From the IMG/VR virus record IMGVR_UViG_3300031992_000070, positions 1-64,000 of that record: a DNA stretch of 64,000 nucleotides. One strand, given 5' to 3'. The DNA is from a virus (taxonomy: Duplodnaviria; Caudoviricetes). This document shows, in pieces, positions 21,063 to 46,331 of this stretch. Under the pieces are notes generated by a model. It ran no database searches. It was not told the DNA's origin and was given only the letters and a program-made list of their open reading frames with translations. The translations under genes and the position numbers were made by a program. Position 1 is the stretch's first letter. The number at the start of each line of letters is the position of its first letter.

Positions 21063-21136
21063 TGGTCTTGGGTGGAATCGAACCACCGATTAACGCCTTT
21101 CGGTAAGCGTTGCTTCATCCAACGAAGTTCAAGACC
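21063..21136 (-). ncRNA. tRNA-like RNA with a 10-nt anticodon loop
   Basis: Acceptor GGTCTTG/CAAGACC, D arm CTTC/GAAG, T arm GGTGG-TTCGATT-CCACC; loop TTACCGAAAG. Confidence 0.7.
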
Positions 21137-28556: not shown

Positions 28557-29471
28557 TTATTTAAATTTATATACCTTGTTGAATTTTCTCTTTTTTGCCA
28601 TTTTGTAGTAGTTGATAATGTCGCATCCGCTTTTGAAACCCATAAGCCACTGTGTGCGTGCATACATAACCCATCTTCCGTCATCAAGGGTTCTCAACGC
28701 AAAGTTGTACAACTCCATGCTTTTCCATCTTGCGCAGTCCTCCATAAGATGCTGTGCAAATACAGAGAAGTCTTTCTGTATGCTTTTGTCTGTATTATCC
28801 CAGAATACAGGAGTATAGTGTCTGTCGAAAAAATCCTTCCCGTGTTCATCAATCATAAAATCATATACCCTGCGTATATCGTTCATTCGCTTGAAAGTCC
28901 AAGCAACAACTTCGTCGTGCAGCCAGTAGAACTCATCCAACACATTAGATGTGTCATCAATATTCCTTTGTACGGGACGAACATCTATATAGCTTGAGCC
29001 TCCGTATATAGTCGTGCTGTAGTCAACGGTAGCAGCTATAAGGTCTGGTCTTCCTCTTTCATACAATGTCCTGTAGAACGTAGGATAGTCGCATCCTTTA
29101 CTGCGGAATGCACCGATACCGACACTACGACCTACTTTTGTATTGAACCTGAATCTCTTCATTACACATAACAGTTATCTGTTGTCAATCTTTTCGTGCG
29201 TAGTGTTAATGCGGCCTTTGTCAAGCAGATAGTGCATGATGTCTTTCAGATTCTTGTCGCGGTCTTTCTTTGCGCCAGACCACATTGCAACTACCTTGCT
29301 TTGCAGTTCAAGGTATGCCTCTGACTGACCTTTTCGCAGCATATTCAAGTATTCCACATACACCTTTGTTATGTCTTCGTAAGACACTTTCTCACTAATC
29401 ATCAAATCAAGAATGATTGCCGCAATAAATTCCTTTGGCAGCGACTTTAATGCTTTTATTATTTCTTCCAT
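28557..29471 (-). CDS. Two hypothetical ORFs (28557-29162, 29175-29471)
   Basis: Codirectional ORFs. Confidence 0.6.
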
Positions 29472-29689
29472 AATATTTATTATTAAAATTCAATATCGCA
29501 TCTACTAATAGGCTCGTCATCGCCACCAATCCTTGTAATGTAAATATTTCTTATTGTTGCACCAAACTCTTGTTCAAGCTCGTTTGCAAGTTGTATAAAC
29601 TGTTGTTTATAATCTTTAATTGTTCTCATACTCTTGTTGTTTGTTTAATTAATTATTATTGTACTTGTAAATTAAAGCAGTGTTTTGAT

Positions 29690-30138
29690 TCTGATTCCTG
29701 ATTAAGCACAATACTCCCAAAGTGCTGTTTAGACACTCTGGTAATTGTGCTATTGACTTGTCCGTCATCGTCATCCGTCAATCACACACAATGTCGGTTT
29801 AAGCGAACATTGATACTTGTCACATCCGTTCTTAACAACGTCGCACAAGCGGACAAGACACTCGTTAAAGCGTACCCTCACTTACTGGCTTTGTGCTTTC
29901 CCTCTTGCCAGTTTTATTTCCTTGGAATCGAGGTGTGACAACTGATACAATTACTCTTTCAGCATTTACGGACGTTCAAATCCCAAGTAAGTGAAACAGA
30001 GAAAGCCAACACATATAATGAACAATCCCTATCAAGTGATGGTGGCACTCAATAGGGATAAATCCTTTATAGTGTTGGCTATAAGCCTATTCTATCGTAT
30101 TATGTCCGCTACAACAAGTCCACCATCCTTGTTTTCAC
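29690..30138 (-). ncRNA. Large (~450 nt) multi-helix ncRNA candidate
   Basis: Promoter TATCTTTG at 30143-30150; no credible ORF; about 10 helices including long-range and crossing pairs. Confidence 0.65.
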
Positions 30139-30254
30139 GTTGCAAAGATACAAAGTATGTTTTAATATTGCAAGTTTTGGAAACATAAATTAAGATATTT
30201 AACTTTTATTTGCCAAAATGCAAGCCAGCGGCGGGCGGTGTTGAGAGTGAACGG

Positions 30255-33200
30255 CTATTCTTCTTCGTTATAATCGTCATCATCATCAAGTCGCCTATCA
30301 CAAATACAAATACCATTACATAATTGAATGTGCAGACCTTGGTCACACCAACGGCAACCGTCTTCGTTTCTAAAATGAATACACTGTTTCATAATCAATC
30401 CTTCTTGTTTTTAATTAAACCGTTAATCCACTTTTTCATATTATCAAGAATATAGTCACCGCACTCCATAATTTGACCACAGGGGAACGCTTTCGTATAA
30501 TTCCACTTACTATCTCCCATTGCTTCAAACACCATATCATTTGTTGGTGTATTGATTGTGACAGCATCAAACACAACAACACAAAGGTCATCCGAGTTTC
30601 TGTGCTCATAAACGCAATAGTTGCGCTGCTCACCATTGTACTGAACACTAAAGATGTAACCCTGTTCACGGCAATTCTCGTAGCGACCTACTTCAACCCT
30701 TGCGTCGTATTCGCGAAATTCCTTATTCCAAGTCTTATCAATGGCATTGTTCTTTGTAACCCGCAGATATGCAAGTACGCTTTGTGCCTGCCAGTTTGCA
30801 CCGTCTTCCATGTAACAATTAATATTCGTCATAGCAATTATCTTTATTTATATAACTCATTTGCCCTGTCAACTATTTTCTGACGACACTTCTTGTCAAG
30901 GTCGCCAAACCAAGACATCGTTTGGTCGTGCGAATACTCAACTTTACCTGTCCATTTATTAAAGATATGGTCGCCAAGCATCTCACCAAACAGATACCGT
31001 GCCTCATTAAGACACCACCGATTGTACATATAGTACATGAAATTCTCAACCTCGCTATTCATCTTCTTTTTCCAGTTTATACCATTCAACATCAGGATTA
31101 TCTAATCCCCAAAACTTTTTCAGATATTTTCTCGTTTCATACTCACGGATACGTTTGTCTACAATATGACCAAACATATCGCCAGTACAAGAATAGGTCG
31201 TGGTAATGATGTGCTCGTTGCCACGTTCCTTAATTGTCGCTTTCCAAATTTCCATATTTATATTTGTTTTAAGCCGTTAAAATTGTGGCGGCTTGTAACT
31301 ATCAAGCAAACCACACAAAATGCGCCTAGAAAGCCTTAAAGTGTGCTTAAATCAATTATATGGGTTTCCACGTAAGTAAGCTTACCCTCATAACCGCGAC
31401 GCTTTAGTTCTTCCATCAGTTCACGCGGTGTGAAATCCTTTAGTCGCGTCATCTTTACATTATTGATTGCTTTGTTACGACCATTTGCAACTTTTTCTGC
31501 CATACAAGACTTACAGAAATCGGTTACTTTTCTTTCGCCCTTCATACCCCTAATACCTCTAACGGCAAACTCGGTAATCGGCAATTCTTTGCCACAACAT
31601 TTACAAACTTTTGTTTCCATAATTTAAATGTCATTTAAGTTAATATCAATACAATCCGTACTTATGTACTTTGAGAATTTTAACCCAGTAAAAGGGTCGG
31701 TGGCAGATAGCCAAGAAAGCACCAGCTTTTCAAGACCATCTTCGTCGGATAAATCCGCATTGGCCTTTATTTCTTCAATGAATCTTGCCAACGCAATAAC
31801 AACACCATTAAGACAAGACAAAGTATGTTCCATAGGAATGCCATCAAGACTTTCAAGCATCGAACTTGATACACTTAATGCAATCTCTTTGTCAATGTCC
31901 TTACTATTAATCGTTCTTTTCATAGTCAATCATTTTTTAATGTTTCAAGATAATCTTTCGGCAGATAATACTGCGCAACACGCTTGCGAGGTGACACCTG
32001 AATCTTCTCTGTAATGATAGGCAAGTCCTCTTCACGCAACTTAAAGATGATAGCCGACAGTCTTAACGAGCCAAACTTATTCAACGCCTCAAGCGGTGTG
32101 ATTGTGTTGCCATTCAACAGCCATGCACGCACGTTAGCTTTCTGTGTACCAAATTCATCGTTCCATTCGTAATCTTTCATAATCCCAAAATTTTAATTGT
32201 TATACTTTAATTTCTTAATCTTAGACAGGCGACCACCAAGTTTTACCTTTCGGTTTCTGTTGTCAATCCATCTGATGTCACACATAAATGCGTATGTACC
32301 ATCTTCAAGCAGATACTTGTCAAGCACACCTTTGTGGGAAATCTGCTTGTAGAACTGTAGACCGCTTTTAGAATCTTCAAGATTGGCAAAGTATTCCTTT
32401 ATGCTATATCCGTACATATCCTCACCTTCTTCTTCGTCTATTGACAACAGCTTTCCCCTGAACTCATACTTTACATCTTTCTCGATACCATTGTCTGCAA
32501 GTGTCTTGTCCCACTCTGGTCTTGTCAAAGACTCCTTGTATGACTTGAGCGCAAAGAAAGCAACGTAGCATTCGCCAATACCGATGTATTCATTTTCGAT
32601 TGCATCCTTAATCTTGGCTGTCAGGTCTTTCTCGCCATCCCAGTTAAGACCACCTTCCTTGTCTTCATAGAACTTGCAGATATTCTTGTAGAGTTCATCA
32701 TCGGTATCTCCTGTGAAATCCGAAAAATACTGAGACAGATAGTCAAATGTTCCTAACTTAACCTTGTCACCTCTATCCCATTCTGCCTTAACCCATCCAT
32801 CTCCGTTCTCTTTAATAAACGAGTCACACACAGCAATTGCGTAGTCAAATCTAACAGCCTTGCTCAAGTAGTGGTCGGCTGGTCTCCAAGAACCACCTTC
32901 CCAACCATATTCATCACAGCCACCAAGATATACCGTGAAACACTCAAACAACTTTACCGTAATGTCTTTAAGGTACTTACCTTGTGCAACAAGTTTGTCT
33001 ATACAGGATGAACCGACCTGTTTCCATTCACCAGTTACCTTGTTTTTGACAACAAATGACTTCACTCTTCGTGTATGGGTTCCACCGCAATAGTCGCACT
33101 TTGTGTATTCCAAGCCGAACTTGGATGGCATTTCCTTGAATAGTTTTTGGTCAACCATCGTAACAATACCATCGTTGTAATATACTGCTGCGACAAGCGA

Positions 33201-42930: not shown

Positions 42931-43637
42931 TTACTTATTGAACTCGATTTCACTGATGCTTATATCCGCAATATCGTCTTGCGGATACTGACTGTTTGAA
43001 AGGTTTACGCACGCATCCATTAACGCCTCGTCTACATTGTAACCCTCGCCTACCTGTGTAAAGGTCACACCTGTGACCAATAACACCTTAAAGAAATACT
43101 TTTTCATAACTCATTTGTTTTTTTTACTGATTAATACTTAACTTATAGATACAAGCGACGCAACCAAACATCGCGCCGCACAAAATTGTTCCTGCTAACA
43201 TATTTACCCCTCCTGCATTAAAAGGTAAATACTCGCCATCAAATTGGCACGATAACACTCTGAATCCTCGACGCTGAATTTTTCGTCTGCTAAATAATAC
43301 TCTTTCATTGCTTTGCTTTTGATTAATACTACTTTCCTGATTAAACTCGCTTTGCCTTGCATACGCACGTAATACGGCTACCATCAAAACGTCTTGTCGT
43401 TATCATTGTGCCGCAAGTACCTGCCTTTTCCTTTGAAAAACTATTCTTAGCACGTTTTGGCGTTCGTACACCCTTGCAAGATGCAAAAATACCATCCGTT
43501 CCAAGCCGTTCCAAGTCACGCATACATAATGCGTAATTGCTTAAACGCTGTCGGTTCGGGCGGTGTTGATAGTGGTCGTTCCCACCCTTTGCTGCAATTG
43601 CGCCCAATTCTGGGCAAAGTTGTGCCAAAGTTGCCAT
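42931..43637 (-). CDS. Small early ORFs (42931-43107, two peptides near 43124-43310, 43341-43637)
   Basis: Hand-translated; each preceded by an AAGTATTAATC-type start region. Confidence 0.5.
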
Positions 43638-44450: not shown

Positions 44451-45010
44451 TGGACTTTCGGGAGTCGAACCCGAATCCAATATCGAAGATATTGCGATGT
44501 CCGCCACCAACATCATTGCCGCGATTTTCAATACTCCGTATTGAAGTGCTATCCGTAGAAGCCCTTGCCCCAAATTCATCAATGCTACGCATTGCCAAGT
44601 ATGCCGCGAATTTTGCCTTGGAGACTAATGCTACCTTGCATCAAACCAAAGGTTTGTCGGTATGTTCCTCCCGATTGGCTACTCTAAAGAGTAGTTGCTC
44701 AATCCAAGTCCGCTTTTACGCCAACCCTTTTGGGGTTGCATCTTTGTGAGGTTTCCCTTAAAGGGAAAAATGCTTGTGGCTACCTCACGATGCCTTACTA
44801 CTACGTAGTAACTGGCGGCTCTCTCTCGATGCTTTGCATTTCCGTTTGACACCCCTTTTCCCCTAAAGGGGAAGTGTCGCACCGCTATCGGTTCGGTGGG
44901 TTGTTCAAAATTTCAAAGAAATTTGGGTTGGCTATTCCCGTAGGTTGCTATATCTTTGCCGTAGCGATTAGTGAACCATCAACATCTGACCGCTGTCGTT
45001 TGATGTTGAC
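44451..45010 (-). ncRNA. Long structured leader/ncRNA ending in a tRNA-like T arm and acceptor
   Basis: Promoter GACCTTTG at 45015-45022; many hairpins; TCGGG-TTCGACT-CCCGA-AAGTCC-A at the 3' end. Confidence 0.6.
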
Positions 45011-45059
45011 GATGCAAAGGTCGGAAATATCTGGCAAACTACAAATCATTTTAACAATT

Positions 45060-46200
45060 AATTTTTGTCTAAACAAGCAAAATCTTCGGAAAAGCCTTTA
45101 AATAAAGGAGTTTTAGGCAATCAAAAAGACTCTTTTTTATGTTAAATTCTAAATAATTTCGACTATAATGCTCTGAAACACCTTTAAACACTATACTTTC
45201 AAGCATTTCGTTAAAGTAAAAGTTTAAGGTATTATGATAAATAGATACCAAAAATAAGCGTTTTTAGTGAAAATATCTTTAGTAATCTTAATTTTTTTTG
45301 GAATAAATATACCGCATAAATATTCATTTTTGTATTAGTGTAATAGTAAGATAGTACACTTAAAATTGTAAAGAAAAAGTCAATTTAGACAATTTCTAAA
45401 TATAGAATTTTCTAAATAAGTATATATCTATAATATACTCTTTAAATAGATTATTTATTTAGATTATTTCTAAATAAGATAGTACTTTAATTATCTGATA
45501 GTTTAACTAAAGTATAGTATAGAAATAGAATATAATTATAAATAAGGCTAAAATAAACTTTAATAAAAAGCCGTAAATAATTGAATATCAATAAGATACG
45601 ATAGATAATAATACGTCAAAAATAGCAATAAATAACGAACGTTATATAAAAATATTTGAATATTACAAAATATTCGTAATTGTCTGAAAACCAATAAGGT
45701 ACGCCAAAGTTATTTGACTGAAATGTAAAGAAATAGTCGGGGGAGGGGGTTAATTCGCGCCCCAATGACAGGGTGCAAACGCCCCTGTTTTCAAAAAAAG
45801 AAAATTTTAAAAATAAAAAATTTAAAACGCGAAAAAAGAAAAAACGAAAATCTGAAACCGAAAAAGAAAAAAAACGCGAGAAAAAAATCTGAAAAAGTGG
45901 GAAAATCAAGATTTAGTGTCTTGTGTGTTGGTGTATTATGTTGTTAGATTCGTTTTAAGGCACTTTTTAGGCTTTCTGGCGGGTTTTTACCTATTTACCT
46001 TATAACTTATCCACTTTGATGAAATTCGTGGCTTAGAACGGCTTAAAATGCGTTGTTGTTATTCTGGTATAAGAATTATTATGCTTTTGCGGTACGATAA
46101 AAAGGGTTATTGCGAAAGTTACGCGCGTGCGTATGTGTGTATATAATAAATATACTTATTTAATAAGGGTACTTTTCAATAAGTGTAGTGATTTAATTGC
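45060..46200. other. AT-rich non-coding divergence region (candidate origin or packaging/terminal region)
   Basis: Gene strand switches here; palindromic repeats, G5AG5 tract and phased A-tracts. Confidence 0.55.
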
Positions 46201-46231
46201 CTAAAAACTTGCATATTTCAATATTTTTTAG

Positions 46232-46331
46232 TACCTTTGCAATGTAGGATAGTCAGGGGTCATGACCTGATGATAAGGGTAAAGCCAATCGCCCTTCCTA
46301 CATTTAACGAGGTTGGTAATTTTTGATTGGT
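46232..46331 (+). promoter_or_regulatory. Promoter (TACCTTTG) plus structured leader
   Basis: AATGTAGGA/TCCTACATT closing stem; same architecture as 7890-7995. Confidence 0.6.

Follow-up and report, generated by a model that had tools for sequence, protein, structure and literature searches.

A stretch of about 450 nt in a ruminant-gut phage genome raises the question of whether it encodes a structured RNA and, if so, what such an RNA would do at this place in the genome. The window referred to below is the whole stretch of DNA analyzed (64,000 nucleotides) and comprises positions 1 to 64,000 of a virus record in IMG/VR that is 80,911 bp long and rated 100% complete; the full stretch is contained in a sheep-gut metagenome, possibly the one from which it came. 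The minus strand carries all genes from ~44.5 kb down to 7 kb as well as the candidate RNA, and around the RNA locus lies a replication and recombination gene block with a sliding clamp, a clamp loader, RecT, and a RecE-like exonuclease. It was concluded, with good support from comparative sequence data, that the locus encodes a genuine, previously unclassified structured RNA that is probably transcribed leftward from its own promoter and is composed of two modules. The features concerned are collected in Table 1.

Table 1. Positions of the RNA, its predicted parts, and adjacent elements in the window
Feature	Position	Strand	Description
Whole candidate RNA (head plus type-A body), ~450 nt	29690-30139	-	Aligned end to end with L017:4250-4721 at 85% identity
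Constant 5' head, ~150 nt	29988-30139	-	nhmmer and covariance model R1, 47-160 bits
P2 hairpin	30115-30131	-	CAAG, 9-nt loop, CUUG; loop 30126-30120 (AUGGUGG) is the kissing strand
Long arm P4-P4b-P5	30005-30079	-	P5 is 30058-30026, with conserved tandem U.G/G.U
L5 loop, CCACCAU	30039-30045	-	Fully complementary to 30126-30120; putative kissing loop or pseudoknot
Type-A 3' body, ~300 nt	29690-29987	-	Common only to the window, L017, and L031
H6 and enclosed H7	29921-29987	-	H6 29987-29980/29928-29921; H7 29963-29959/29945-29941; compensatory changes
H8 hairpin	29884-29912	-	ACUGGC/GCCAGU
H9 and H10	29826-29873	-	H9 29873-29869/29862-29858; H10 29840-29837/29830-29827; compensatory changes
Three 3' hairpins	29705-29812	-	H11, H14, and H12 enclosing H13
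H11	29812-29807/29794-29789	-	CAAUGU/ACAUUG to CAAUAG/CUAUUG, then CAAACA/UGUUUG
H14	29782-29777/29757-29752	-	Pairing kept through changes
H12	29751-29745/29711-29705	-	AGCACAA/UUGUGCU to GACGCAA/UUGCGUC
H13 (inside H12)	29741-29734/29724-29717	-	Every variant pairs
Promoter, Bacteroidota type	30141-30173	-	TTG 30173-30171 and TATCTTTG(CA) 30150-30141; read from the sequence
AT-rich tract after the end of L017 similarity	29630-29689	-	Leads into the 48-aa ORF
48-aa ORF, part of the swapped cassette	29483-29629	-	Missing in L076 despite the same flanks

A promoter belonging to the RNA itself had been proposed in the sequence-only reading of this DNA, and the homologs support it. The TATCTTTG box at 30150-30143, together with the TTG at 30173-30171, matches the Bacteroidota -33/-7 promoter pattern, and this TAnnTTTG box was retained in all homologs, 2-3 nt ahead of a conserved CGUG. 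Conservation among the homologs starts at this CGUG (30139), 2-3 nt past the box, and the predicted transcription start is at about C30139/G30138. The pattern TTG-N17-23-TAnnTTTGCA was found in about 11 copies in the genome, ahead of transcription units, the RNA promoter being one of them. On the plus strand, no promoter of the TAnnTTTG (Bacteroidota) type was found between 29140 and 31150; the only sites there were of the sigma-70 type and are not expected to serve this host group. At the other end, the AT fraction after the last GGG was 0.74, no terminator-like site was found 3' of the RNA, and the downstream genes (48 aa, 98 aa, 201 aa, and onward) are on the same strand as the RNA. The conserved block upstream of the RNA encodes an HTH_39 protein of the winged-helix type and a zinc-finger-like protein, along with small proteins and an acidic peptide rich in Cys. 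In most loci, the gene just ahead of the RNA promoter is for a small Cys-rich peptide with an acidic tail (window 30255-30392 and L017:4784-4945, both on the minus strand), and these peptides fall into two unrelated sequence families of the same make-up.

The minus strand of 29690-30138 gave a minimum free energy of -140.4 kcal/mol (z = -5.1), with 0 of 100 shuffles as good, while the same comparison gave z = -3.3 for the plus strand. The closing stem of the full-length minimum-free-energy structure, which pairs the loop-2 bases elsewhere, was overridden by covariation and dropped. The fold scores, together with the covariation among homologs, bear out the original proposal of a structured, ORF-poor stretch of ~450 nt, which lies on the minus strand (~30139-29690). 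That it contains no credible ORF was also sustained, as no ORF was conserved in the homologs; the conserved bases of the 41-aa ORF at 29774-29649 are read in another frame in L017, and the frame stops after 3 codons in L031. Searches with cmscan against Rfam 15, made for the window at the gathering score and for 29400-30500 at E values up to 10, found no family for the RNA, in keeping with the earlier statement that none could be assigned, and no family was found for 12 homologous loci either. A blastn search of the phage collection gave no match to the stretch, the pattern scan of genome_contigs gave 0 matches and hence no prophage or host clue, and no related loci were retrieved with the 201-aa neighbor gene. 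Logan contigs of four bovine-gut RNA libraries were compared with 28800-31000, and short contigs from relatives were found to span 29742-30006 and 29989-30122; these contigs also span the flanking genes and the promoter and show neither transcript ends nor levels, so that they speak neither for nor against a discrete transcript.

The collection of homologs suggested in the sequence-only reading changed the picture of the architecture. Copies of the 5' part were gathered by protein synteny, DNA patterns, and covariance model R1 from IMG/VR, JGI, and ENA contigs, yielding 14 complete and 2 truncated copies, all on ruminant-gut phage contigs, and covariation was present among them. Neither of the sequence-based grounds for refutation named in that reading, a known family or a lack of covariation, therefore applies. 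The window genome has a single copy. L017:4250-4721 was aligned over the entire RNA, while the DNA on either side of it was nonhomologous to the flanks in the window. Beyond the head, L017 was the only homolog aligned at 85% over the full length; L031 was also aligned, more distantly. The RNA had been pictured as one ~450-nt unit with a long-range architecture, and this was replaced by a constant 150-nt head followed by an exchangeable body.

The head consists, in order, of the P2 hairpin, a conserved linker (CACGGACAU ... GAUAGAA-AGGC), the P4-P4b-P5 arm with its 7-nt loop, and a pyrimidine-rich tail ending in UUUCAC. RNAalifold applied to the head alone found only P5; the remaining helices were placed by hand and then counted. 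The P5 helix was 99.4% paired, its 13-bp stem was identical in 12 of the 14 copies, and the 14-bp hairpin reported earlier at 30025-30059, which corresponds to P5, is present in all of them. P4 is the helix previously given as 30072-30080/30004-30012 and was corroborated by compensatory changes in L033, L034, L054, L055, and L066. For the 5' CGUG, two partners are possible, the nearby CACG or the distal UUUCAC, with one compensatory example for each (CAUGCA/UGCGUG in L055 and GUAAAA/UUUUAC in L049, respectively). The tandem U.G/G.U of P5 varied only to A-U or C-G, changes that would give A.C mismatches on the opposite strand. Since these changes fit the minus strand only, this strand was deduced to be the one that gives the RNA.

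An extremely improbable explanation is that there is no functional RNA and that the conservation reflects a DNA-level element or recent common descent. This would be compatible with the type-A body being present in 3 sequences only and with transcription being only predicted. Against it, compensatory changes were found in 11 loop variants and in many stems, the G.U pairs fit one strand only, and the arms of P5 form, as DNA, an imperfect palindrome.

The most informative pairing lies between the loops of P2 and P5. In the 13-sequence alignment, each of the 7 pairs shows changes on both sides, with 97% of the cells paired. Eleven versions of the loop pair occur among the 14 complete copies, all of them Watson-Crick. 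The complementarity of each RNA with itself is 7 (6 in one RNA), whereas for non-self combinations the mean is 3.06 and the maximum 6, and in a permutation test of loop matching 0 of 20,000 permutations reached the observed sum. The loops therefore vary but stay matched, while the stem bearing the L5 loop is nearly invariant. A pseudoknot had been placed at 29934-29941/29817-29824, but L017 retains only 5 of its 8 pairs; judged by the covariation, the true pseudoknot, missed in that reading, would be the loop-loop pairing of 30126-30120 with 30045-30039. The 8-bp long-range helix 30103-30110/29848-29855 was likewise abandoned, as its end pairs are lost in L017 and L031, and its 5' strand, CGGACAU, is conserved even in RNAs without such a partner. 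The flanks of the 14 loci were also searched for a third copy of either 7-mer loop sequence, and none was consistent.

Covariation is blind to whether pairing occurs within or between molecules. This bears on a reading that we consider decidedly unlikely, in which the RNA would be a stand-alone, trans-acting ornate RNA whose loops pair between molecules to form dimers or rings, like phi29 pRNA or the ROOL/GOLLD assemblies, with self-specificity set by the variable loops and the exchangeable bodies acting as different cargo or effector domains. It would account for a loop pair that is highly variable, always matched, and never above 6 of 7 with non-self partners while the stem of one loop is invariant, and it agrees with the strong promoter, the large size, and the lack of an ORF. 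The position of L5 at the tip of an arm of ~27 bp, distant from the short P2 hairpin, also points in this direction, although a linker of ~35 nt could let the loops meet within one molecule. A precedent is given by ROOL and GOLLD, in which covarying pairings, in ROOL earlier read as tertiary, proved to be intermolecular bridges (10.1101/2024.12.08.627333). Arguing against such an RNA are the lack of a terminator to define a discrete species, the occurrence of the same head before an mRNA in L044 and L055, and the failure of all pRNA, ROOL, and GOLLD models to match.

Phage phi29-family pRNA is encoded by the phage, has its own promoter, and carries two mutually complementary loops that change together among phages; these loops pair intermolecularly, and pRNA binds to the packaging motor. 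The present RNA is alike in having its own promoter and in loop complementarity that covaries among phages (7 of 7 positions, 11 variants in 14 copies). However, the pairing is of 7 bp rather than 4, the pRNA model (RF00044) is not matched, and the locus is internal, within the replication block of an 80.9-kb genome with Bacteroidota-type promoters, and not at the genome end. A large exchangeable body is attached, and intermolecular pairing is here only a possibility. In the immunity RNAs of P4 (CI) and P1/P7 (C4), matched complementary segments belong to a single transcript, lie close to where an early operon starts, and vary among related phages. The likeness is that complementary segments of one transcript vary yet stay matched; the differences are that no consistent further copy of the 7-mer was found nearby, that both partners lie inside one compact domain, and that there is neither a C4 model match nor tRNA-like processing signals.

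The ROOL, GOLLD, OLE, HEARO, and raiA RNAs usually occur in Firmicutes, and ROOL and GOLLD form homo-oligomeric cages that intermolecular kissing loops hold together. The present RNA resembles the five in being a large, multi-hairpin RNA supported by covariation, from a ruminant-gut phage, and in having a prominent covarying loop pairing. It differs in its Bacteroidota-type host, its modular head and body, its lack of adjacent tRNA genes, and the absence of a match to the covariance model of any of the five. The earlier suggestion that size and context recall the ROOL/GOLLD class did not survive, as cmscan gave no match to ROOL (RF03087) or GOLLD (RF01998). The tRNA-like neighborhood invoked for it also fell away: the sole Rfam tRNA match, at 21063-21136, is 9 kb away, and ARAGORN found none. 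This element (minus strand, 37.5 bits with the Rfam tRNA model and no tRNA by ARAGORN in the window) looks like an atypical, tRNA-like sequence.

For the type-A body, nine hairpins (H6-H14) were deduced, in each of which the pairing is kept through two-sided changes in L017 or L031, with only three sequences available for comparison. H6 changes from CUUGGGAU/AUUCCAAG to CUUAAUGU/GCAUUAAG in L031, H7 from GCUGA/UCAGU to ACCGA/UCGGU in L017, H9 from ACGCU/AGUGU to ACUAC/GUAGU in L031, and H10 from CGUU/AACG to CCGA/UCGG in L017. H8, already proposed as 29907-29912/29884-29889, becomes ACUACC/GGUAGU in L017, and UCAC/GUGA stands at the same place in L031. The three 3' hairpins placed earlier within 29705-29811 were substantiated by compensatory changes in H11, H12, and H13, whose variants are all paired. 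The helix 29987-29993/29879-29885 is invariant in L017 and ambiguous in L031 and is regarded as possible. A closing helix was also considered, in which the pyrimidine-rich tail of the head would pair with the GGG found close to the 3' end in all body types; it was rejected because it was no better than internal controls. A pattern specific for type A matched only L017 and two head-less sequences among viral contigs, the latter being taken as chance matches.

In other phages, the head is followed by quite different sequences. Type B bodies were found in L002/L032, L033, L049, L042, and L066, type C bodies in L030, L034, L028, L035, and L054, and a type D body in L029. These non-A bodies are 250-500 nt long and free of ORFs, and they follow heads up to ~95% identical to that in the window (L035 and L042). 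Types B and C have compensatory changes of their own, and bodies B, C, and D gave no Rfam match. The nhmmer profiles of types A, B, and C found nothing in the other types, and a common origin of the bodies was dropped for lack of profile similarity among types. In L044 and L055, an ORF of 243-263 aa with two helix-turn-helix or winged-helix regions begins 15-20 nt past the end of the head. It is thus well supported by these comparisons that the RNA is modular, a constant head being followed either by one of at least four seemingly unrelated structured bodies (A-D) or directly by a protein gene. We know of no large bacterial or phage RNA with such a construction of a head and swappable bodies. 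Promoters of the same type were also seen ahead of other leaders. At L052:6166-6440, 50 nt of promoter identical to 30190-30141 of the window precede a different leader of ~230 nt, which has its own 7-nt complementarity between the 5' segment and a distal arm (GUGGCUC/GAGCCAC); an ORF and RNase HI come after this leader. At L061:5564-5800, L066:6392-6620, and L064:7930-8260, related phages have a promoter of this type ahead of a structured leader and tRNA-like sequences.

The position of the head ahead of unrelated downstream units could suggest that it represents a new kind of catalytic RNA, self-cleaving or other, or else a processing signal, either of which would free the body or the mRNA with a defined 5' end. 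The head contains conserved unpaired stretches (CACGGACAU, GAUAGAA-AGGC, and GAUUGUU) beside a freely covarying tertiary helix, a pattern typical of small ribozymes. This explanation was nevertheless judged very improbable: the hammerhead, twister, pistol, hatchet, and HDV-like models gave no match, no cleavage site could be named, and the conserved stretches weaken in L055 and L066.

A second explanation is that the RNA is a long, structured 5' leader whose head, and perhaps body, acts in cis on the downstream operon (the 48-aa, 98-aa, and 201-aa genes onward) by 5'-end protection, processive antitermination, or control of translation or processing. The head begins at the predicted start with its CGUG base paired to either the proximal CACG or the distal UUUCAC, it ends 15-20 nt ahead of an ORF in L044 and L055, and no terminator-like site separates the RNA from downstream genes on the same strand, all of which would suit a leader. 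On the other hand, an extra 300-450 nt of covarying structure in four unrelated forms goes far beyond the needs of known leaders, the Rfam cis-regulatory families gave no match, and there is no common regulated gene, since the genes downstream differ among phages that share a head. This explanation was considered somewhat unlikely. The pseudoknot-activated rep leaders of IncB and IncI-alpha plasmids are similar in that a leader hairpin loop finds its partner in a distant segment ahead of a replication-type gene, as may be the case in L044 and L055. Here, however, no antisense promoter was found, the partner is another hairpin loop rather than the ribosome-binding region, and the phage in the window has no protein gene directly behind the head.

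The reading that we favor, tentatively, was drawn from what occupies the same slot in related phages. The closest relative at the locus, L076, has flanking genes 94% and 90% identical to those in the window; the slot between them holds four iterons of 19 nt with 21-22-nt spacing, then a promoter and a short leader, and the gene for a 192-aa protein. The 48-aa ORF, which travels with the RNA cassette, is missing from L076 even though both flanking genes are shared. The repeats are four direct copies of 19 nt (CATCGTTACAAATTTGCA) at L076:1300-1383 and also at L072:1700-1790, in each case upstream of a promoter and a gene for a two-winged-helix protein of 192-193 aa, and RNase HI follows in L072. 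The L072 protein is 97% identical to that of L076, and its predicted model has two winged-helix domains (pLDDT 90.5). Foldseek gave weak matches to plasmid initiators, 8ac8 (187 columns) and 4pt7/4pql, and a fold search with the 193-aa protein gave high Z scores only for generic winged helices. The combination of repeats and protein looks like an iteron-plus-initiator module in the slot of the RNA. No iterons were found in or beside the RNA or head locus in the window, L017, L044, L055, or L052, and profile comparison of the two winged-helix protein families indicated no relationship (probability 6%). RNase HI is encoded 0 to 2 genes downstream of the cassette in L017, L028, L044, L055, L052, L072/L073, and one ENA contig, and in L017 and L028 the RNA body occupies the position held by a protein gene in L055 and L072. 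Neither winged-helix family was found in four 92-100% complete genomes with an RNA body; the control search recovered the proteins in three other genomes.

It is therefore possible that the RNA is the alternative form of a cassette for replication initiation or control and works in cis, as a primer or an R-loop transcript. This reading is preferred because of the repeated positional exchange with iteron, initiator-like, and RNase H modules, together with the absence of a terminator and the AT-rich tract. Under it, the RNA would be a protein-free version of a swappable cassette. Where sister phages have iterons and a Rep-like two-winged-helix protein followed by RNase HI, the phage in the window would rely on the folded transcript made from the promoter, which would act in cis at the locus that encodes it. 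The transcript would be a primer or an R-loop-forming origin RNA like ColE1 RNA II or the phage T4 origin transcripts, with the head as the folding platform and the AT-rich tract past the body as the presumed site of hybrid formation. A more specific version was considered unlikely: the folded transcript would replace the protein initiator, the same promoter and head would drive either a Rep-like gene or unrelated bodies, and the variable loops would serve as a self-recognition code, possibly between molecules.

In common with ColE1 RNA II and the T4 origin transcripts, the RNA would be untranslated, promoter driven, folded, and ~450-550 nt long with an AT-rich tract at its end; in addition, relatives carry an RNase HI gene beside the cassette, and the RNA stands in the slot of an iteron-plus-initiator-like module. 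In ColE1, an antisense RNA I is transcribed over the 5' domain, and RNase H processes an RNA-DNA hybrid formed by RNA II at the origin. The differences are that no antisense RNA I is evident (the plus strand of 29140-31150 has no Bacteroidota-type promoter), that there is no sequence or model similarity, that the GC skew turns elsewhere, and that the genome lacks RNase H. The last two also count against a primer: no RNase H gene was found in the window genome, so that a host enzyme would be needed, and the GC-skew turn is at ~45 kb. The cumulative GC skew tracks the direction of transcription, for which reason, with its turn at 45 kb, it was dropped as an origin marker, and neither this turn nor the most AT-rich ORF-free stretch (44.6-46.3 kb) is at 30 kb. 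The region 44580-46331, with 1.7 kb free of ORFs of >=70 aa, GC down to 26%, and the cumulative GC-skew minimum, includes the divergent promoters at 43514 (-) and 46209 (+) among its elements; as an origin or early control region, it is a stronger candidate than the RNA locus itself. Beyond the window, G000 74446-78688 is a further 4.2 kb without an ATG-started ORF of >=70 aa, and two more gaps lie between it and the end of the record. The winged-helix proteins could also be transcription regulators and the iterons their operators, contrary to the initiation reading. For the head placed directly before a protein gene in L044 and L055, a plain leader role fits equally well, and four unrelated bodies are not an obvious expectation for a single priming job.

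The RNA adds a family to those known from phages, and the 11 versions of a single 7-bp loop-loop contact form an unusually clean natural series of compensatory changes. The combination of a constant head with four or more unrelated bodies or a protein gene is an unusual modularity. If the positional exchange reflects function, it would pose in directly testable form the question of whether a phage can use an RNA in place of a protein initiator. Should the loops pair between molecules, the head would provide a compact 150-nt system for programmable RNA self-assembly. Even as a plain leader, the head would be new as a promoter-proximal RNA element in phages whose promoters are of the Bacteroidota type.
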